From an uncultured Gammaproteobacteria bacterium (GTDB lineage: Bacteria; Patescibacteriota; Microgenomatia; Levybacterales; GWA1-39-11): 63,811 nt of DNA. Shown here in pieces: positions 8,848-54,895 of this stretch. The notes beneath the pieces are model-generated. The model ran no database searches. It saw only the letters and a list, made by a program, of their open reading frames with translations, and was not told the DNA's origin. The stretch's first letter is position 1. Every line of letters starts with the position of its first letter. The stretch lies in NCBI GenBank assembly GCA_964427615.1, contig CAYRUR010000006.1, positions 1 through 63,811 on the forward strand, read 5' to 3'. The translations under genes and the position numbers were made by a program.

Positions 8848-11486
<2,639 letters not shown>

Positions 11487-40896: not shown

Positions 40897-40924
40897 ATTT
40901 TTCACCTCCTCTCTTTTTTCCAAC

Positions 40925-41094
40925 AAAAAAACCTCCCGTTTGGGAGGTTCACTTTTTTGATGGATAGTTATCTTATTTTCTTAATCCACCAAGCAACCTC
41001 CCGGTTTGGGAAGTAAAGTAAAAGTAAAATGATACTGTCTGGTGGATGTTCATGATTAAATAATACGCTACCATAGTGTGATTCCTTTTGTCAA
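40925..41094 (-). promoter_or_regulatory. pheM-like ribosome-mediated transcription attenuator (cassette 4)
   Basis: -35 TTGACA (41094-41089), 18-nt spacer, TAGCGT (41070-65), mini-ORF 41053-40973. E1 CTTCCC (41013-08), E2 GGGAGGTT (41002-40995), E3 AACCTCCC (40949-42), E4 GGGAGGTT (40937-30) plus U-tract. Confidence 0.65.
40973..41053 (-). CDS. 26-codon leader peptide rich in Phe/Tyr
   Basis: Hand translation gives MNIHQTVSFYFYFTSQTGRLLGGLRK. The FYFYF codons lie just 5' of E1, and the ORF runs through E1 and E2. Confidence 0.55.
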   Translation of the reverse strand: MNIHQTVSFYFYFTSQTGRLLGGLRK

Positions 41095-43965: not shown

Positions 43966-44190
43966 AATTCTGTGCTTTACTATAGCAAAAATAAGCTTGT
44001 TTATAAAGTGAGAAAGTATATTCAGTTAACGAGTTGCGAGTTAACGGGTTAAAAGGTTGAAAGAAAAGCGTTTAGTGCTTAGAAAAAATTGAGTATGACT
44101 TGAATCTTAAAACTAAAATCGCAAGACGTAAAACTACAACGCAAATCTAAAAACTTTTTTATCTCTCCTGTTAGGTGATTTTCTTTCTTC

Positions 44191-44310
44191 TCCCTCTCCC
44201 CTTGGGAGAGGGTTAGGGTGAGGGAAGAATCATGTCTTTTGTAAACTGTATGGTTTGATATATTTCGAACCTTTCACCCTCACCTTCGTCCTCCCCCATC
44301 AAGGGAGAGG
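44191..44310. repeat. MITE-like inverted pair of the ccctctcc..gagaggg..ggtgaggg module
   Basis: The left arm tccctctccccttgggagagggttagggtgaggg (44191-44224) and the diverged inverted arm caccctcaccttcgtcctcccccatcaagggagagg (44275-44310) flank ~50 nt. A related copy is at 10961-10998. Confidence 0.65.
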
Positions 44311-44380
44311 AAAGTGTTAATGATAGTTTCTAAACGTAAAACCCTATACGCTAAACGCTTGTTCTCTGTTCTCTTAATTC

Positions 44381-47148: not shown

Positions 47149-47154
47149 GTGGTG

Positions 47155-47228
47155 TGGGCTCAAGAGGACTCGAACCTCTGACCTTTGCAATGTCAATGCA
47201 ACGCTCTAACCAACTGAGCTATGAGCCC
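47155..47228 (-). tRNA. tRNA-Val (anticodon GAC)
   Basis: The reverse complement gggctcatagctcagttggttagagcgttgcaTTGACATtgcaa...ggttcgagtcctcttgagccca folds as a cloverleaf. Confidence 0.9.
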
Positions 47229-47294: not shown

Positions 47295-48368
47295 TTATTT
47301 AACGCTCAATAAAAACTCTTTTAAGATTGTATAGTACTGTTCTAGGCTCTTAATATCTACCCACTCCTCATCTGAGTGCAACCCCGCTCCTTTAGGTCCA
47401 AATTCTACTCCTTCACAGCCAACTTGTGCAAAGTGGCGCAGGTCTGAGCCTCCGTGTCTTTCTATGATAGATGGTGTTTTGTGAGCGACGTTTTTTGTTG
47501 CTTTTTTTAGATATTTTACATATCCATTTTTTACATGGGTATGCATGGAAGTATCATTTGTAAGAACCTCAAATTCAGCTGTAGAGGGCAAAAATGATTG
47601 TATTTTTTCCAGGATTCCATCCGCTTTACCATGCGTGAAGCGGATATCAAGATAAAGAGAACAATCTTCAGGTACAACATTGATGGTGTTATTTGACGTT
47701 TCAATACGAGCAATGTTAACGGTTGATGTCCATTTTGCAGATGAAGGTACAGGAAAGGCTTTATGTATTTTCTGTATTATTTTTTGCATCTGAGTAATTG
47801 CATTATTTCCATTCCACAGATGAGCACCGTGGGCTGCCGTCCCATTTGTTTTTATTTTTACCCACAATACTCCTTTTGCTTTATTACCAATTTGAAAATC
47901 TGTTGGTTCTCCAGCAATTACAAAATCACCTCTTACGCCTTTTTCTATTTGATACAGCGTGCCATTATGCCCCCCTATTTCCTCATCTGTTACGAGTTGT
48001 AAAGCTAGTGGGTAGTTAACAACTCCAGCAAGCTCTTTAAATGCAATAATTTGGGCTGCTGCAGCGGCTTTCATGTCATAACAGCCTCTTCCATAGAGTC
48101 TGCCATCTTTAACGGTGGGACTATACTGATAATCATGTCCTGGTACTACATCTAAATGTGCATTCAAGATGATTTTAAACTGTTCTGGCCTCCCTGGTGT
48201 GTTATAGGCAAGCAAGCTTGGGATACCATTTCTTTCAAACTCTTCTACTGTGTTGCCATTTAGCGCATTTCTGGCAATTTGCAGCACTTCCCGCAATTCT
48301 TCAGCATTTTCATGCGTAGAACGGATAGTTATCAAATTTTTAGCTAACGTTAAGACTGAATCAAACAT
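47295..48368 (-). CDS. M20-family metallopeptidase (ArgE/DapE-like)
   Basis: ATG 48368 is preferred over TTG 48404. Motifs: NAHLDVVPG, GRGCYDMKAAAA, TDEEIGG. It lies 10 nt downstream of the 652-aa gene. Confidence 0.8.
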   Translation of the reverse strand: MFDSVLTLAKNLITIRSTHENAEELREVLQIARNALNGNTVEEFERNGIPSLLAYNTPGRPEQFKIILNAHLDVVPGHDYQYSPTVKDGRLYGRGCYDMKAAAAAQIIAFKELAGVVNYPLALQLVTDEEIGGHNGTLYQIEKGVRGDFVIAGEPTDFQIGNKAKGVLWVKIKTNGTAAHGAHLWNGNNAITQMQKIIQKIHKAFPVPSSAKWTSTVNIARIETSNNTINVVPEDCSLYLDIRFTHGKADGILEKIQSFLPSTAEFEVLTNDTSMHTHVKNGYVKYLKKATKNVAHKTPSIIERHGGSDLRHFAQVGCEGVEFGPKGAGLHSDEEWVDIKSLEQYYTILKEFLLSVK

Positions 48369-48378
48369 AATATCTATT

Positions 48379-50337
48379 TTATCCTGCTTGAGCAAAAGAC
48401 TCAAATGCTTTTTTAACTTTTATGATGTCTTCAGCATTTTTTATCTGCATTTTTTCCAGCTTTCGGACGATTTCAAGAGGAGGTACTCCTCTATCATATT
48501 CTTTAAGGATTACTTCACTGATGGGTCCTTTTGGATCCATAGTATATTCTTCTATGGAATCAGCAGGTTCTTCTAGTAAGTTTTGTATTCTGACTCGTGC
48601 CAGAGCACATTGCATTTCAAGTGCAGGATATTTATCCTGCATATCATTAATAAAACGAATACTCTCATGTATTACCTCAGTTACCTCAGGATGTTCAGGG
48701 TCTGAAAATCCATGCAAACTTGCATCTATTGCTAAGTCTTTTTGTTTATCAGCAGTCGCAATATGAGGATAATTTTCTTTGAAGTATTCAATTGGTTGTT
48801 GCCCATTTGCTAATGCTTCATATGCCCCTACTGCCAGTAGTTGTAAGAAAGAGTTACGTGCTGCCTCATCCATAATAGATGGAGATGATGAGCATCCAGT
48901 GTATTCAATTCTTCCAGTTTTGTCCTCAGGTTTACTTGTGTTAATTCGCGCTCGTGCTCTACCGTGTTGAACCGGGTATTTTTTTCCGTCAATTTCGGCT
49001 ACGAGAGATGCTCTATCAAGTCTATCTGCAGGTCCATTTACTATGTTTTCTGTAATTCTTTCTCGTAAGGCTTCAGGAGTTCTAATAAAACCACTTGGGA
49101 AGCCAGTGTTAAGCGTGTAGCGTAGAAGTGCTCTGACATCTCTTGGACGATGCTTTTTCCCATCCATTTCTACTTCTGGAGTTGTTTCCCATACCAGAGG
49201 AGTACTCATCATAAGCATCTCAGCTACTGTAGCTAAATCGCTATTCATTACGTCTGTAACTGCTACCACTTCTTGTTCTGTAACAAATACTCGTCCCTTC
49301 TCATCTCTATGATGTGGAAGGCCAATATTTAAATGAGATGCTGCAATAGCCCAGTATCCTAAGTGTCCAAGTTCTGCTTTCATTTCTTCAAAGTTTGCAT
49401 ATCCTTTTTGTTGAGCTATATTTTCCATCATTTTTTGCGTAGCGGGTTCTAGACAATCAGCTTGCTCTCTGAAAAGTAAATCCTGCATAGATTTGACATA
49501 ATCTCCAATGTCTCCTTCCATACAAATATTCATTTTCTCCGGAGTGCTTGTCATAGGGGTACTGGTGTCTACTATTGCCACATGAGGGTATTTCTCTTTT
49601 CTTTTTTGAATTTGTTCTGATCTTGCTTCAAAGAACGCAAGAGGTTCGCTGACTGGATCTACAGTTTCTTCTATAGTTCCTTTTAAGAGTTCTCCACCGT
49701 CTATATTGGCCAGATCTCCTTTTTCATCTGCTGCAAATCCTTCTGGTTCGCTTCCAAATTTTCCAAATCCACCAAAGGTAGTAGGAATTTGAGAAAAATC
49801 TGGGGCATCTTTGATTGCTTGAATCATTTTTCCAGCATATTCTGTAACGTATTCATCGTCTACGGCTTTCATGAGAGAAGTTTCTACATGATCAGCTGTT
49901 TGTTCTGCCCCAAACGTGATTTTGTCATCAATTTCTGTTGGAATGTATTTTGGATTTTTTATTACAAATGCAATACTTCCGTCTTTATTGAGTCCTACTA
50001 CTCCGGTTTTTTGTAACGTACCAACTAGTGAAATTTCATTATCAATATTTGAGAATTCTTCTTGTCTTTCTGTAATTTCTGCTGAAAGCATAGGGAGAGT
50101 GAGAGGGGATTCACAGGAAAGATATTTTTTCTTTGCTTCTTTTGTGGATGAGGGTGTTTTATTTTCAGAGTGTGTTGAGATGATCCCATTAGGTCCAACG
50201 TTTTCAAGTGGTACATTACTATGTCCGTTAGACTCTGCTCCATTAAAAGCCATTGGTTGTGTGGTTTCTGCCATAGGATAATCTCCAGCTTCTATCTGGT
50301 GTGTAATTCTATGTTGTTCTAAATAATTTCTAGCCAT
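48379..50337 (-). CDS. large hypothetical protein; C-terminal half weakly resembles carboxylate-amine ligase (GCS2/glutamine-synthetase fold)
   Basis: 652-aa ORF. SHLNIGLPH, MMSTPLVWE...RPRD and GRIEYTGCSSSPS are loosely reminiscent of YbdK-type ligases (recollection only). An alternative SD-preceded start is at ATG 50274. Confidence 0.6.
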   Translation of the reverse strand: MARNYLEQHRITHQIEAGDYPMAETTQPMAFNGAESNGHSNVPLENVGPNGIISTHSENKTPSSTKEAKKKYLSCESPLTLPMLSAEITERQEEFSNIDNEISLVGTLQKTGVVGLNKDGSIAFVIKNPKYIPTEIDDKITFGAEQTADHVETSLMKAVDDEYVTEYAGKMIQAIKDAPDFSQIPTTFGGFGKFGSEPEGFAADEKGDLANIDGGELLKGTIEETVDPVSEPLAFFEARSEQIQKRKEKYPHVAIVDTSTPMTSTPEKMNICMEGDIGDYVKSMQDLLFREQADCLEPATQKMMENIAQQKGYANFEEMKAELGHLGYWAIAASHLNIGLPHHRDEKGRVFVTEQEVVAVTDVMNSDLATVAEMLMMSTPLVWETTPEVEMDGKKHRPRDVRALLRYTLNTGFPSGFIRTPEALRERITENIVNGPADRLDRASLVAEIDGKKYPVQHGRARARINTSKPEDKTGRIEYTGCSSSPSIMDEAARNSFLQLLAVGAYEALANGQQPIEYFKENYPHIATADKQKDLAIDASLHGFSDPEHPEVTEVIHESIRFINDMQDKYPALEMQCALARVRIQNLLEEPADSIEEYTMDPKGPISEVILKEYDRGVPPLEIVRKLEKMQIKNAEDIIKVKKAFESFAQAG

Positions 50338-50380: not shown

Positions 50381-50539
50381 AAAAAAATCTCCCTTTTAGT
50401 GGGAGATTGCAAGTTTTTTAAGTCCTTATGATTCTCCCACCGTATTAGCTGCTCCAAAAAAGGAGGCCAAAGCCAATAATGGGAAGAAACATCTTATTCA
50501 TGGATTCCCATTCTAAAATAGATTCACTTCTTTTGTCAA
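50381..50539 (-). promoter_or_regulatory. cassette 1: promoter, leaderless mini-ORF, antiterminator/terminator
   Basis: -35 TTGACA (50539-34), 18 nt, TAGAAT (50515-10), ATG 50501. E1 GTGGGAGA (50440-33), E2 TCTCCCAC (50406-399), E3 GGGAGA (50393-88), U7 (50387-81). Confidence 0.6.
50445..50501 (-). CDS. 18-codon mini-ORF of cassette 1
   Basis: MNKMFLPIIGFGLLFWSS. Its stop TAA lies 4 nt 5' of E1. The C-terminal LLFW-x-x-stop resembles the cassette 2 peptide. Confidence 0.4.
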   Translation of the reverse strand: MNKMFLPIIGFGLLFWSS

Positions 50540-50589
50540 GGTAAAAAATAGTCATAGTAGTTATATTAGTTTTTGTATATTTATTTTTT

Positions 50590-50803
50590 ATGTTGTTATT
50601 TTGGGTGAAGAAGGGTGAGAAAGCAGTCTAAATTCACGATAAATTGAGAAGCACGTTTGCCACTCATTTTCGTAAATTGCGCATAAGCGCACTACTTCCC
50701 ACCCTTCAGTTGCCTGCTTGAGACTACAATGTCTCGCAGCTGTGTCCGACTTTAGCCTGTGTGGACTGCATCAAGACATTCATGCCGCAAGCAGTGGTTG
50801 TGA
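50590..50803 (-). ncRNA. GC-rich structured RNA segment (3' UTR element or independent ncRNA), class unknown
   Basis: Domain 1 has nested helices on the minus strand: CTGCTTG/CAAGCAG, AATGTCT/AGACATT, GCAG/CTGC, GTCC/GGAC. Domain 2 is closed by GAAGGGTG/CACCCTTC and contains the TGCGC-ttat-GCGCA hairpin. Confidence 0.4.
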
Positions 50804-51115
50804 TCAGGTGAGGTCTGGATTGTACCATCCCGGAGAAGGATGATGTTTCCAGAATCTTCTGAAGAGCTTTTCTGCATCTTCTCGGACAGTTTTTTGAGAA
50901 GTCTCTATCCGACACTTGCTCGCTAGAGACCAACGTGGAGGTTTCTCCGGGTTGAGTTCTTTTGAGTAGAGTGCAATAGAGCCTCTCGGAGCTCTCCCTC
51001 CGTGTTTCAGAAGTACAGAGTTGAATGAGACACCGAAATGCGTTAAGTCTTCCATCACCTCCTGGGCGAATGAGTCTAGCTCCCACGCCACAATAACAAT
51101 AGGTTTTCCCTGCAT
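50804..51115 (-). CDS. hypothetical protein (island ORF B)
   Basis: 103-aa ORF with SD aaAAGGAGaactctgcATG. It is GC-rich. The N-terminal KPIVIVAWELDSFAQEVMEDL suggests a beta-alpha-beta unit. Confidence 0.55.
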   Translation of the reverse strand: MQGKPIVIVAWELDSFAQEVMEDLTHFGVSFNSVLLKHGGRAPRGSIALYSKELNPEKPPRWSLASKCRIETSQKTVREDAEKLFRRFWKHHPSPGWYNPDLT

Positions 51116-51147
51116 GCAGAGTTCTCCTTTTGATGCGGATGACGAAG

Positions 51148-51672
51148 CTAATAGAAGAGAGACATCTCTCGACGACGAGCTCTCGTGCGATTTCGATCTC
51201 TCTTCGGTCTGGGCTTCTTTTGGATTTTAAGCCCTTCGGTTCGGTGCCATGCGCCCTTGCTTCGGCGTTCGTAGTAGATAACGTCTTGAAGGACAGAGGC
51301 GAGGCTGGTCGTAAGCCACGGGTGCTTAGGTGGAAGATCATTCTCAGAGGAGACAAGCAGAGACTCTGCTGCTCTTGCTGCATTGAGTACCGACTCCGAG
51401 AAGTTACCCTTAAGGTTGTCTCGTAAGATTACTCCAAGTACGAACCTCTGTTCCCATACATGTTGCCCTTGGTGGGAGAGGAGAACGTGTCGTGCGTGTC
51501 TGCCAGGCCATCTTTCAGAGTTGCCCGAGGCAAAAAGAACGGAAAGATGAGGTGCAGGAGCGTGCCGATCTATGAAAGACACCTCGCATCCCTTGTCCTG
51601 CAGGATCTTGATTGCCGCTTCACTGAGGGGATCACCCTTGATTCCCACGTAACTAACAGGTCGCGTGCTCAT
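51148..51672 (-). CDS. hypothetical protein with Arg/Lys-rich tail (island ORF A)
   Basis: 174-aa ORF with SD aaAAGGAGccgacaaATG. Its C-terminal tail is KKPRPKRDRNRTRARRRE. It is GC-rich. Confidence 0.55.
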   Translation of the reverse strand: MSTRPVSYVGIKGDPLSEAAIKILQDKGCEVSFIDRHAPAPHLSVLFASGNSERWPGRHARHVLLSHQGQHVWEQRFVLGVILRDNLKGNFSESVLNAARAAESLLVSSENDLPPKHPWLTTSLASVLQDVIYYERRSKGAWHRTEGLKIQKKPRPKRDRNRTRARRREMSLFY

Positions 51673-51943
51673 TTGTCGGCTCCTTTTCTTTAGATCACTT
51701 CGTTCCGACTCCTCTTAGGGTAAGACTCGTGTCTACTCCTTTCCGATTTTTTCTACCGCTTCAGATTCCTAACCAAGAGTTTGAGGAGAGACAAATCCTT
51801 ATTGTACCCCCTCTACCCTTAGCTAGGAATAGAACTGTTCACAACCATTTGTTCTGAATATGTAGCATACTAATCTTCCGCTTGTGGAAGCTGTTTTGCC
51901 TATTCAGAACAGTTTTTAATGTGCAATAATGCATTTTTTTAGC
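51673..51943 (-). promoter_or_regulatory. long structured 5' leader between the cassette 2 terminator and ORF A
   Basis: It contains the TTGCACATT box (51926-18). A hairpin domain at 51850-51912 has outer stem tgttctgaata/tattcagaaca and inner stem cttcc-ACAAGC-ggaag. It is paralogous to 52759-52935. Confidence 0.4.
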
Positions 51944-52132
51944 AAAAAAAATCCTCCCGTTTTGTGGGAGGTTCTCTTTTTTTGCTTTTATTTTTTGAAT
52001 TACTTTCTTCTTAATAAAATCCTCCCACAAATTAGTCTCTCCAGACAAGGAGATTGACCATGCATGTAATGTGGAATGGATTCATATTCATAATTCTTGC
52101 TCATTGTAAAAGAATGACTCTTGTTTTGTCAA
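51944..52132 (-). promoter_or_regulatory. cassette 2: promoter, leaderless mini-ORF, antiterminator/terminator
   Basis: -35 TTGACA (52132-27), 18 nt, TACAAT (52108-03), ATG 52091. E1 GTGGGAGG (52028-21), E2 CCTCCCAC (51971-64), E3 GGGAGG (51958-53), U8 (51951-44). Confidence 0.6.
52032..52091 (-). CDS. 19-codon mini-ORF of cassette 2
   Basis: MNMNPFHITCMVNLLVWRD. Its stop TAA lies 3 nt 5' of E1. Confidence 0.4.
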   Translation of the reverse strand: MNMNPFHITCMVNLLVWRD

Positions 52133-52148
52133 GATGAAAATGGGACGA

Positions 52149-52176
52149 GAGAGCGTGGATATTACTCCACGCTCTC
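52149..52176 (-). terminator. perfect 11-bp hairpin just after the ORF C stop (possible terminator or processing site)
   Basis: gagagcgtgga-tattac-tccacgctctc. On the minus strand it is followed only by a short interrupted U stretch (cgucccauuuuc). Confidence 0.4.
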
Positions 52177-52182
52177 CATGAA

Positions 52183-52758
52183 TCAGACAAGGTGAGTGCT
52201 GAGCATGGTTTCTGTAAGCCAAAATCGTGCTTCTGCTCCTGCTCTTTGTTCTTTCCTGTTCTCCTTTCTACCTTTGTGGGTGGCTTTCTCGTATTTTCGT
52301 TTTATGTGTGCCAGCGCACGTCTATGAGGTCTTCGGTCTGAACGTGAGAGCCGTTGCTTTGGCATACGTATCTCTCCCAGGGCTTTTCTCACTCGTCTCT
52401 GCCATGCAATGACTTCATTTCCCCCGTAGAGTCTTACTCCCAAAGAGTCGAAGTCCTCTGTGATGAGGAATGAGATGTATTTGTTAATCACGCCTCTCAA
52501 CTTCTTTATGCTCACATTCTCACCTACTTCAATTAGAAAAGGTGAATTAATGTCAGCAGGACAATCTTCGGGAACATGGGGAATAATCCTAACTTTGCTT
52601 CCCAAAGATTTATTGCCGATTAAGGCGATATCCTGTTGTTTGCACTGTACCTTCCCAATAACTTGGGTTGGAAATCCATCTACCCAAGCAAGTGCTAGGA
52701 TGGCGAGAGCGATGCTGTCGCTTTCAGAAGCAACAATGGTAGGAACGAACGAACTCAT
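52183..52758 (-). CDS. hypothetical protein with Arg/Lys-rich tail (island ORF C)
   Basis: 191-aa ORF with SD ttGAAGGAGGctcatcATG. The N-terminal VPTIVASESDSIALAIL and later ITEDFDSLG could fit a Toprim- or NYN-like fold (speculative). The tail is RSDRRPHRR...KRKYEK..KGRKENRK. Confidence 0.55.
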   Translation of the reverse strand: MSSFVPTIVASESDSIALAILALAWVDGFPTQVIGKVQCKQQDIALIGNKSLGSKVRIIPHVPEDCPADINSPFLIEVGENVSIKKLRGVINKYISFLITEDFDSLGVRLYGGNEVIAWQRRVRKALGEIRMPKQRLSRSDRRPHRRALAHIKRKYEKATHKGRKENRKEQRAGAEARFWLTETMLSTHLV

Positions 52759-52935
52759 GATGAGCCTCCTTCAACTGCTATGAGCTTAACAGACTTTCGA
52801 CAATGGGCCAAAACCCAAGGGATAAGAATCTCCTCTCACTTGTCTGATTATCTACTCTGAATAGACAAACAGTATCAGAAAATCTCTTGCTTATAAGAGA
52901 TCTGATATACGGTTATCAATGTGCAAATTTGCTAC
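52759..52935 (-). promoter_or_regulatory. structured 5' leader between the cassette 3 terminator and ORF C
   Basis: It contains the TTGCACATT box (52926-18) and the hairpin atcaga..tctctt-ATAAGC-aagaga..tctgat (52874-52906). The loop is conserved with the ORF A leader while the stems differ. Confidence 0.4.
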
Positions 52936-53109
52936 AAAAAAACCTCCCGTCTGGGAGGTGTCTGTAATTTGTATTAAATTTTAATTAGAAATTGGTATGT
53001 ATTCCTCCCACAACAAACCTAACCCCTCATTCTGGGGTGTTTGCTGCGTTTTGGTGAGGACACAAATACCATAAGAGGCATTATAACTAAATGGTTTCTG
53101 ATACGTCAA
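52936..53109 (-). promoter_or_regulatory. cassette 3: promoter, leaderless mini-ORF, antiterminator/terminator
   Basis: -35 TTGACG (53109-04), 18 nt, TATAAT (53085-80), ATG 53072. E1 GTGGGAGG (53011-04), E2 CCTCCCAG (52958-51), E3 GGGAGG (52948-43), U7 (52942-36). Confidence 0.55.
53019..53072 (-). CDS. 17-codon mini-ORF of cassette 3
   Basis: MVFVSSPKRSKHPRMRG. Its stop TAG lies 7 nt 5' of E1. The peptide is unrelated to those of cassettes 1 and 2. Confidence 0.3.
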   Translation of the reverse strand: MVFVSSPKRSKHPRMRG

Positions 53110-53127
53110 GCAAAAAGGAAAAATAGT

Positions 53128-53853: not shown

Positions 53854-54687
53854 TCAAATGTTTGAGAGAAAATCCAGTGTCTTTTGCTGCCGTATAATAG
53901 CAGCTAAAAGATAGGGATTTTGCATAACTTCCATTTTTTGTTTCTCATCTTGGATGGTTGCCAAAGCATCAGTAATATCTTTTTCTTCTACGGTGATTTT
54001 TTCTGCGTCTGCAATTTCTCTTAACACAAACTCAATTTTAAGGTCTCTTTCAGCTTGATCTTCATAATCCTTGCGCAAGTCTTTTACATCTTTACCTCTT
54101 CCCTCCAAAAATTGGTCCAGGGAAATACCAAGCCTTTTCAGCTCTTCATACATTTGAGAAATAAGCCTATTTGCTTCTTGTTCTTTTAATACTTGAGGAA
54201 TAGAAACTTTTGCAGTTTTCAAAACTTCACCGATTATTTCATCAAGATTTGGTTTTTTTTGCTCATTTTCTTTGCCTGGTACGATTATTTTTGATTTGGC
54301 AGTTATTTTTTTTACTTCATCTTTGTAGTTATTCAGGTCTACTTTAGGTTGTTCGCAGGTAATAGCCTGAAATACCAACTCAGTACCTTCATCAAAAGTC
54401 TCAATATGAATCTGAGGATTGGTAATTGGAGTGATTTTTTGCTCTTTTACTGCACTATTGTATGCTTCTGGAAGTACTTTTTTGAGTGTCTCCTCTTGTA
54501 CGAGCTCTTTTGGTAGTTTTTCTTTTGCAATATGTGCCGGAACATTCCCTTTACGAAATCCAGGGACATTGACTTGCTTCGCAAGCTTTGCTGTTACTGC
54601 TTCCCTTTCTTTTTCTACTGTTTCCCAAGGTACAGTGATGGTAAGCACTACATTTCCGTTTTCTTCGCGCTTTAATTCTGATTTCAT
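53854..54687 (-). CDS. tig: trigger factor, short form apparently lacking the PPIase domain
   Basis: ATG 54687 is preferred. It has the ribosome-binding signature VPGFRKGNVP. At 277 aa it is short against the roughly 430 aa typical of trigger factor. Confidence 0.8.
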   Translation of the reverse strand: MKSELKREENGNVVLTITVPWETVEKEREAVTAKLAKQVNVPGFRKGNVPAHIAKEKLPKELVQEETLKKVLPEAYNSAVKEQKITPITNPQIHIETFDEGTELVFQAITCEQPKVDLNNYKDEVKKITAKSKIIVPGKENEQKKPNLDEIIGEVLKTAKVSIPQVLKEQEANRLISQMYEELKRLGISLDQFLEGRGKDVKDLRKDYEDQAERDLKIEFVLREIADAEKITVEEKDITDALATIQDEKQKMEVMQNPYLLAAIIRQQKTLDFLSNI

Positions 54688-54895
54688 AGCGACTTTATTA
54701 TACACATAAAAAGTGATTTGTAAAATGGTGGAGTAATAGTAATATGTACTTTTGTAAGATAAATGTATGAATTTACTTGAAGATTTTATAAAAAATAATT
54801 AGAACTATTTTAAAATGTCTCTAATTTTTCCTTATAAAGGCTTAGAAAGTGTGGAAATTGTGAATGTATTTTTTGAGGAAGTTAAAGGTTGTCTG

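Follow-up and report, generated by a model that had tools for sequence, protein, structure and literature searches.

The DNA analysed here is a 63,811-nt stretch (contig CAYRUR010000006.1; the window) of the chromosome of an uncultivated, Levybacteria-like bacterium belonging to the Candidate Phyla Radiation (CPR), an organism that occurs in SRR7082966 and SRR7082976. Between positions 50381 and 53109 its minus strand carries three short cassettes, 3, 2 and 1 from upstream to downstream, each made of a promoter, a mini open reading frame (mini-ORF) and an intrinsic terminator, and we put the probability at roughly 78% that each of them attenuates transcription by the classical four-segment mechanism, in which a ribosome on a leader-peptide ORF decides the outcome. 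Comparison with related loci establishes conserved and co-varying complementarities, maintained reading frames and amino-acid-specific relatives in front of the matching tRNA-synthetase genes, and we infer that the mini-ORFs are translated and that read-through is regulated. The cassettes belong to a large repertoire common to Levybacteria and Roizmanbacteria, uncultivated bacteria of very small size, and we found no earlier description of it; the mechanism is a familiar one, and what is new is its setting, i.e., the phylum, the scale of the repertoire and the genes of unassigned function. All pairing, folding and conservation results were computed from sequence.

The three cassettes follow a common plan, and reading of the sequence together with a promoter and terminator scan located all elements where a preliminary description of this DNA had placed them. 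A promoter of the form TTGACx-18-TAnAAT is followed 7-11 nt on by the ATG of a 17- to 19-codon ORF, whose stop codon lies 3-7 nt before an element E1 (consensus GTGGGAGR); E2 (YCTCCCAS), E3 (GGGAGR) and T7-8 come next. Each promoter has 11 of the 12 consensus positions and an 18-nt spacer and ranks in the top five of the 41 sites listed for 10 kb, and the terminator scan finds G+C-rich stems of 6-8 bp followed by T7-8 in all three. In the window as a whole, CTCCC-N3-9-GGGAG was observed 9 times against 0.07 expected, and GTGGGAGR 7 times against 1.6.

In cassette 3 the promoter, TTGACG-18 nt-TATAAT, occupies 53080-53109 (-35 box 53109-53104, -10 box 53085-53080; all cassette coordinates refer to the minus strand), and the 17-codon mini-ORF MVFVSSPKRSKHPRMRG with its stop spans 53019-53072 (ATG 53072, stop 53021-53019). 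A motif scan places E1, GTGGGAGG, at 53004-53011, and the terminator at 52935-52959 reads ACCTCCC(AG), loop, GGGAGGT and T7, with E2 (CCTCCCAG) at 52958-52951 and E3 (GGGAGG) at 52948-52943. Cassette 2 has its promoter, TTGACA-18 nt-TACAAT, at 52103-52132 (-35 box from 52132, -10 box 52108-52103), the 19-codon mini-ORF MNMNPFHITCMVNLLVWRD with its stop at 52032-52091 (ATG 52091), E1, likewise GTGGGAGG, at 52021-52028, and a terminator at 51944-51971 consisting of E2 (CCTCCCAC, 51971-51964), a loop, E3 (GGGAGG, 51958-51953) and A followed by T8. The corresponding features of cassette 1 are the promoter TTGACA-18 nt-TAGAAT at 50510-50539 (-35 box from 50539, -10 box 50515-50510), the 18-codon mini-ORF MNKMFLPIIGFGLLFWSS with its stop at 50445-50501 (ATG 50501), E1 (GTGGGAGA) at 50433-50440 and a terminator at 50381-50408 with E2 (TCTCCCAC, 50406-50399, preceded by AA), a loop, E3 (GGGAGA, 50393-50388, followed by TT) and T7.

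The gap between the -10 box and the ATG is 7 nt in cassette 3, 11 nt in cassette 2 and 8 nt in cassette 1, and the AUG would lie at the 5' end of the transcript or at most about 4 nt from it. The preliminary description took the lack of a Shine-Dalgarno (SD) sequence as a sign of a leaderless start; the absence is real but is weak evidence, because only ~11% of the long ORFs of this lineage have an SD-like 4-mer. The alternative E1:E2 helix, previously given as 8-10 bp, measures 7-9 bp overall, cassette 3 accounting for the lower value.

Folding of the RNA from the AUG to a point past E1 brings in a fourth element, which had been missed before. In all three cassettes this region folds into a long hairpin through pairing of E1 with a segment near the beginning of the mini-ORF (segment 1), with energies of -25.6, -24.6 and -34.0 kcal/mol and z values against shuffles of -3.9, -2.9 and -4.6 for cassettes 1, 2 and 3, respectively; for cassette 3 (z = -4.64), 0 of 200 shuffles were as stable. 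Segment 1 is UGUGUCCUCACC at 53053-53064 in cassette 3, where it pairs with E1 in the untranslated RNA, GAAUCCAUUCCACA at 52070-52083 in cassette 2 (z = -2.85) and AUGUUUCUUCCCAUUAUUGGCU at 50471-50492 in cassette 1 (z = -3.88), where it pairs with the stop-codon region as well as with E1. The segment 1:E1 pairing is present in both the minimum-free-energy and the centroid folds of all three cassettes, and the minimum-free-energy fold of the full-length RNA consists of this hairpin plus the terminator. An RNAalifold consensus of six homologous cassettes from four genomes, which includes segment 1 of cassettes 1 and 2, recovered the 1:2 helix, an apex hairpin and the terminator. Folding and alignment place the apex hairpin at 52033-52060 in cassette 2 (UCUCC-UUGUC-UGGAGA, extended) and at 50451-50467 in cassette 1 (CCUCC-UUUUUU-GGAG), and in both it holds the single Trp codon of the mini-ORF. 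Segment 1 is thus predicted to be an anti-antiterminator inside the mini-ORF, and the presence of a 1:2 helix beside the 2:3 and 3:4 helices would make the cassettes classical four-segment attenuators.

In the proposed mechanism a sigma-70-type promoter would start an RNA with the AUG at or within ~4 nt of its 5' end, segment 1 lying inside the mini-ORF, E1 serving as segment 2, E2 as segment 3 and E3 with the U-run as segment 4. A ribosome that reaches the stop codon would cover E1, so that the E2:E3 terminator forms and a leader RNA of 120-150 nt is released. An earlier stall would leave segment 1:E1 melted and E1 free to capture E2 before E3 is made, with read-through into the genes as the outcome; stalls predicted to permit this fall at codons 1-17 for cassette 1, 1-18 for cassette 2 and ~1-8 for cassette 3. 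With no ribosome on the RNA, segment 1 would keep E1 and the terminator would form.

The core of this scheme, i.e., a promoter, a mini-ORF with little or no leader, mutually exclusive E1:E2 and E2:E3 helices and a readout by the ribosome, had already been put forward and is supported here, with one reversal: lack of translation had been expected to favour read-through, but the full-length untranslated RNA is predicted to terminate, with E1 held by segment 1. Masked folding agrees with the earlier suggestion that a ribosome at the stop codon masks E1 and favours termination in cassettes 1 and 2. With the ribosome upstream of the stop, RNA ending before E3 adopts E1:E2 for A-site positions at codons 1-17 in cassette 1 and 1-18 in cassette 2. 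As a control we used the leader of pheS (40922-41053, minus strand), a fourth copy of the design with the Phe-rich leader peptide MNIHQTVSFYFYFTSQTGRLLGGLRK, E1 (GGGAGGTT) at 41002-40995 and its terminator at 40950-40929 (minus strand). Under masked folding it behaves as the model expects, and a +12-nt ribosome mask leaves E1:E2 possible as far as the final Phe codon and no further.

The comparison drew on Roizmanbacteria loci and on the loci of the 80 nearest PheS proteins (63-76% identity), the latter all from Levybacteria/Levyibacteriota metagenome-assembled genomes and sampled around pheS; loci are numbered here with the prefix L. Co-variation between E1, E2 and E3, first noted at one position of cassettes 1 and 2, is borne out by these relatives. 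The stem variants GGGAGA/TCTCCC, GGCGGG/CCCGCC, GGAGGT/ACCTCC, GCGGGG/CCCCGC and also GGGGAG each occur with matching E1 and E2, and core positions take the triples G-C-G, A-T-A and C-G-C in a register-anchored table of 121 cassettes. This table was used because MAFFT and covariance-model alignments misplace E1 against E2 by 1-3 columns; it is conditioned on an E1:E2 score of >=16, the unbiased statistic being the enrichment over shuffles given below. Within the cassette-1 family the 5' flank of E1 also pairs with bases of the terminator loop: cassettes 1 and 2 and L014 use TGT:ACA, whereas L036, L012 and L060 use TTT:AAA. A mere copying of E3 into E1 would not account for this co-variation.

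At orthologous loci the architecture is kept. Homologues of the gene behind cassette 1 carry Roizmanbacteria annotation, and upstream of them (L003, L006, L009 and L010) we find a promoter, an ATG ~10 nt past the -10 box, a hydrophobic ORF of 17-23 codons, E1, an A/T-rich spacer, E2, E3 and a T-run. Their stems are GGCGGG/CCCGCC instead of GGGAGG/CCTCCC, so the design has persisted while every paired base was replaced, and at orthologous positions the RNA pairings are conserved and the peptide sequence is not. Cassettes 1 and 2 align over their full length, from the -35 box to the T-run, with L014:3716-3835, L030:3025-3147, L036:4505-4634 and L030:1149-1271, which come from three other species. 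A covariance model built from this family (R1) gives 66 matches at E<=1 in 1.42 Mb, and all but one of these (65) lie on the gene strand. Within the window, cassette 1 scores 96.9 bits, cassette 2 90.4 bits, the pheS leader 30.2 bits and cassette 3, which is matched in part, 34.1 bits. By position, cassette 3 corresponds to the cassette that always follows the DUF5660 gene.

A census covered both strands of 1.47 Mb, made up of Levybacteria (80 species), the Roizmanbacteria loci and the window. E1 was called at a complementarity score of >=16 between an upstream segment and the 5' arm of the terminator, with shuffled upstream sequence as the control. Among 225 strong intrinsic terminators, 46% have an upstream E1 by this measure versus 7% in shuffles. 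An ATG ORF of 8-45 codons ends at E1 in 70 of 104 terminators with E1, compared with 13 of 92 without it, and a -10 box lies 4-13 nt before the ATG in 61/104 and 6/92, respectively. When the search window for E2 was widened, 121 terminators passed the same score, and ORFs in these cassettes were defined from the promoter side only (-35 box, -10 box and ATG), for which 77 of the 121 qualify. The in-frame stop falls within 15 nt of the start of E1 in 73% of these 77 ORFs versus 16% in the two shifted frames, most of which close early. Most often 7 nt separate their -10 box from the ATG, and an SD-like 4-mer precedes none of them (0/77). The cassette architecture recurs in relatives far above chance, and the frame comparison establishes that the mini-ORFs have been kept open up to E1 across the family. 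In terms of synteny, the interval from the DUF5660 gene to the HD-protein/thrS genes contains 1-4 cassettes in nearly all Levybacteria loci, with mostly species-specific ORFs between them.

The same census alters the standing of the stem motif. GGGAGG/CCTCCC was thought not to be the generic terminator of this genome, yet it is the commonest strong stem of the lineage (84/225 terminators), and 59 of these 84 have an E1. As an intergenic hairpin in the window it had been described only from the cassettes and the pheST leader, but CTCCC...GGGAG palindromes also occur at 10961-10979, 44190-44208 and 44291-44307, where they belong to a different repeat without a T-run. E3 as the SD of the next gene, i.e., dual control, was considered and rejected for the window, as it applies to only 14 of the 121 relatives and to none of the window cassettes. 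In those 14, an ORF of >=60 residues starts 5-12 nt downstream of the GGAGG of E3 (e.g., L038:1156, L040:1348, L059:5372 and L073:3700), and there the same switch could mask the SD and combine transcriptional with translational control.

The sister cassettes indicate what such a leader may sense. Leader peptides of the form FxFYFTSxxGR (xFGFYFTSxxGR and relatives) lie upstream of pheS at many Levybacteria loci, and peptides with a TTTTT run lie upstream of thrS in L019, L041, L057, L065 and L079; LLLTYR, IIIITR, IIVIITS and LILVILNSLKGG are further classes found in relatives. The peptide classes match the downstream synthetase genes, and in the classed leaders the regulatory codons end 13-15 nt upstream of E1. 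Levybacteria appear to regulate thrS by Thr-run and pheS by FxFYFTSxxGR leader peptides. The thrS gene of the window itself has no Thr-run leader, and no T-box was detected in the window. For cassettes 1 and 2, tentatively and by analogy with the pheS control, stalling would most likely respond to too little charged tRNA for the codons that close the permissive window at its 3' end, which makes L-L-F-W-S in cassette 1 and L-L-V-W-R in cassette 2 the likely, if still tentative, candidate sensor codons, with Leu and Trp as candidate amino acids. The mini-ORFs end in LLFWSS (cassette 1) and LLVWRD (cassette 2), and only these two have a single Trp codon, which might act as a sensor. The kinship of the two peptides was pointed out before; the similarity holds, but it reflects the conserved apex hairpin CUCCUU...UGGAG, because of which the peptides read LLFW and LLVW, and not necessarily conservation of the peptide.

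Several observations weigh against the attenuator reading. No run of codons for one amino acid is present in cassettes 1-3, as opposed to the pheS, Thr, Leu and Ile leaders, and the Trp codon sits in a conserved RNA hairpin. Trp was rejected as a conserved sensor codon because it is missing from the family members of L014, L030 and L036. In cassette 3, masked folding yields E1:E2 for no stall beyond codons 1-8, and its 7-bp E1:E2 helix has to form across a 41-nt spacer. When the RNA is truncated before E3, cassettes 1 and 2 prefer E1:E2 at equilibrium even without a ribosome, so that termination without translation would depend on the order of co-transcriptional folding, which is a kinetic argument. 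Segment 1:E1 pairing is only modestly enriched across the family (40% vs 20% at a score of >=16). Finally, the targets are two ORFan units and a ligase without substrate assignment, on which no amino-acid logic can be checked.

Among the rival explanations, the same hardware might read a general signal, i.e., translation capacity as set by 70S loading at the start codon, elongation rate or ribosome-targeting toxins and antibiotics, so that accessory genes come on under any translation stress. The lack of a codon run, a permissive window that in cassettes 1 and 2 takes in almost all of the ORF, and targets that are ORFans and not amino-acid genes would all fit, as would the leaders of the ligase-gene homologues, which differ in class: they are Leu/Ile/Val-rich in Roizmanbacteria (L003, L006, L009 and L010) and contain a Thr run in L050. 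However, the sister cassettes that precede pheS and thrS share this design and show a clear amino-acid specificity in keeping with those genes, and scans with Pfam, NCBIfam and PADLOC found no resistance-type gene (ABC-F, methyltransferase or efflux) downstream. We regard a general signal as unlikely, although it is the strongest of the competing explanations.

That the cassettes are instead independent small genes, encoding 120- to 150-nt small RNAs or tiny hydrophobic peptides while the downstream genes use other promoters, seems very improbable to us. The default predicted product is indeed a terminated short RNA, several mini-ORFs are hydrophobic, 5' untranslated regions of 180-280 nt with a GCACATTAA box lie behind cassettes 2 and 3, and action in trans is possible for attenuator RNAs, as described for rnTrpL of Sinorhizobium (PMC6614838). 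Yet a stand-alone gene needs neither an E1 that co-varies with the 5' arm of the terminator nor a stop codon at E1, the peptide classes track the downstream synthetase genes, and at orthologous positions it is the RNA pairings and not the peptide sequences that were kept. Antitermination by a TRAP- or PyrR-like protein or by a metabolite that reads the GGGAG repeats, with the ORFs incidental, has hardly any probability left. The near-identical G-rich repeats E1 and E3 and the missing codon run in cassettes 1-3 are compatible with it, but the stem is wholly replaced between lineages (GGGAGG, GGCGGG, GCGGGG) under a constant architecture, which argues against sequence-specific binding. The reading frames are also maintained up to E1, and no Rfam riboswitch or protein-binding leader matches the window.

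Classical attenuators of Proteobacteria include trpL, pheL, pheM-pheST, thrL, leuL, hisL and ilvL of E. coli. The cassettes resemble them in the short leader ORF, the 1:2, 2:3 and 3:4 helices, the intrinsic terminator and a predicted decision by ribosome position, and the pheS leader of the window lies between rplT and pheS, like E. coli pheM, with a ...FYFYFTS... that resembles pheM. Unlike them, the window cassettes are predicted to have little or no 5' leader and have no SD, cassettes 1-3 lack a regulatory codon run, the targets are ORFans and a ligase resembling glutamate-cysteine ligase (GCL) instead of biosynthetic operons, the phylum belongs to the CPR, and the cassettes stay below Rfam thresholds. 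In the window, Rfam reports only tRNAs at the gathering level and no riboswitch, protein-binding leader or T-box, and the 55-bit threshold of Phe_leader (RF01859) is not reached by cassette 1 (30.6 bits), cassette 3 (24.9 bits) or the pheS leader (28.3 bits).

Leader-peptide attenuators had been predicted earlier in Actinobacteria (PMC1262725), and Streptomyces lividans has leaderless leader peptides with attenuators, among them leuL-leuS, trpL2-trpS, thrL-thrS and alaL-alaS; eight elements were described in one genome, several without a clear U-run terminator (PMC8079986). As there, leader peptides, here predicted to be leaderless, stand directly before aminoacyl-tRNA synthetase genes, and the single-Trp leaderless leader peptide upstream of trpS (MMTRTCTQLWRAA; PMC8079986) recalls ...LLVWRD and ...LLFWSS. 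In contrast to S. lividans, every cassette here has a canonical hairpin with T7-8, the lineage sample contains the design dozens of times, also before non-metabolic ORFans, and there is no sequence relationship. The leaderless polycysteine short ORFs of mycobacteria form a ribosome-directed regulon of many copies (a 'ribulon') and act on translation, a stalled ribosome unmasking a downstream ribosome-binding site (bioRxiv 10.1101/834739). The cassettes share with them the sensory short ORF, predicted here to be leaderless, and the many copies, but end in intrinsic terminators 100-280 nt before genes with their own SD. The antibiotic-responsive attenuators of erm, cat, vmlR and bmrCD likewise combine an upstream short ORF and alternative helices with read-through upon stalling; the cassettes differ from these in having no resistance gene downstream and in their amino-acid-specific sister elements.

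Full-text literature searches found no description of leader-peptide attenuation in CPR bacteria or Microgenomates, and the repertoire amounts to at least 77 promoter-defined cassettes in a sample of ~1.4 Mb around pheS. Where Firmicutes would use T-boxes, thrS is preceded here by Thr leaders and pheS by Phe leaders. As these organisms cannot be grown alone, the leader peptides offer a readable record of limiting amino acids and of starvation-responsive genes, candidates for which include the GCL-like ligase with its M20 deacylase and the hypervariable ORFan island described below. The small, clean and probably leaderless four-segment design may also be a convenient natural template for synthetic translation-sensing switches.

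The cassettes lie 100-280 nt before downstream genes that have their own SD. Cassette 3 precedes a 191-residue ORFan (52183-52758, minus strand) that begins 180 nt past the terminator and has no homologue among 5.8 billion proteins. Behind cassette 2 are a 174-residue ORF of a rare family and a 103-residue ORF (50804-51672, minus strand). Six distant relatives of the former were found among 1.8 billion representatives; one, in L030, likewise lies behind a cassette of the cassette-1 family, and another, in L092, behind a 49-codon hydrophobic ORF and a terminator. Its AlphaFold model (predicted local distance difference test, pLDDT, 78) has no significant match in the PDB, and the ORFans downstream of the cassettes have none in Pfam, NCBIfam, PHROGs or PADLOC. 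Cassette 1 is followed by a gene for a protein of ~631 residues (48379-50274, minus strand) and a DapE/ArgE-like M20 deacylase gene (47295-48404, minus strand), a conserved pair that always occurs together. The 631-residue protein has no Pfam or PDB sequence match, but a Foldseek comparison of its model (pLDDT 84) finds gamma-glutamylcysteine synthetase and carboxylate-amine ligases of the YbdK type (E = 1.7e-7, probability 1.0), and the protein is predicted to be a ligase with a GCL/YbdK-like fold.

The 5' untranslated regions of 180-280 nt that follow cassettes 2 and 3 carry the conserved GCACATTAA box. A conserved box, TTGCACATT(A/G)A(A/T)AAC, lies 16-86 nt past attenuator terminators, in the window at 51912-51926 and 52912-52926 (minus strand) and in relatives at L014:3914, L030:3206 and ~15880 of L051 (minus strand). 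The pattern G[CT]ACATT[AG]A has 25 matches in 2.8 Mb, 5 of them at such post-terminator sites, including those behind cassettes 2 and 3; an operator, a further promoter and an RNA element are all conceivable roles for the box.

The cassettes and their ORFans form a hypervariable island, bounded by the DUF5660 gene on one side and the HD-protein/thrS genes on the other (window 50381-53127; equivalent in L012-L086), that is present in essentially all Levybacteria loci. It contains mostly species-specific ORFs, many with Arg/Lys-rich C-terminal tails, and an attenuator cassette stands before each unit. We consider it a speculative and rather doubtful possibility that the cassette is a modular, duplicating promoter-plus-sensor unit systematically attached to the fast-turnover ORFans of this island, through which host-derived amino-acid shortage or general translation stress would switch on a species-specific accessory set, possibly with host-interaction functions of episymbionts. 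The island ORFs of the window have strong SDs, though only ~11% of long ORFs have one, and a GC content of 45.9% vs 37.4% elsewhere. High GC as a general sign of foreign DNA was rejected, as only 11 of 18 other islands are GC-rich, and so were integron-like or mobile cassettes, for which there is no integrase and whose sole hint is a serine recombinase in one island (L064).

The island lies in a region whose gene order is two peptidoglycan-hydrolase-like genes, trigger factor, the DUF5660 gene, cassette 3, the 191-residue ORF, cassette 2, the 174- and 103-residue ORFs, cassette 1, the ~631-residue gene, the M20 deacylase gene, tRNA-Val, the HD-protein gene, ilvA, ridA, thrS, infC, rplT, the Phe leader, a 111-residue ORF, pheS and pheT. 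The tRNA-Val(GAC) gene (47154-47228, minus strand) directly follows the M20 gene, inside the presumed cassette-1 operon, and GTC codons are used twice by the cassette-2 mini-ORF. The trigger factor (53854-54705, minus strand) has just 283 residues and consists of the N- and C-terminal domains without the peptidyl-prolyl isomerase domain, a short form that recurs in related loci; a query of metagenomes with this gene for close relatives returned only 4 contigs, each of <=2.4 kb, and was uninformative.

Two intergenic repeat families were observed upstream of gyrB and thrS. One is the G/C-rich palindrome ...CACCCTnACCCTCTCCCAARGGGAGAGGGAG, with copies at 10955-11005, 44185-44230 and 44270-44310, and the other reads GAACAGAGAACRAGCGTKTAGCG...TAGCGT and is found at 11320-11385 and 44335-44375, all on the minus strand.

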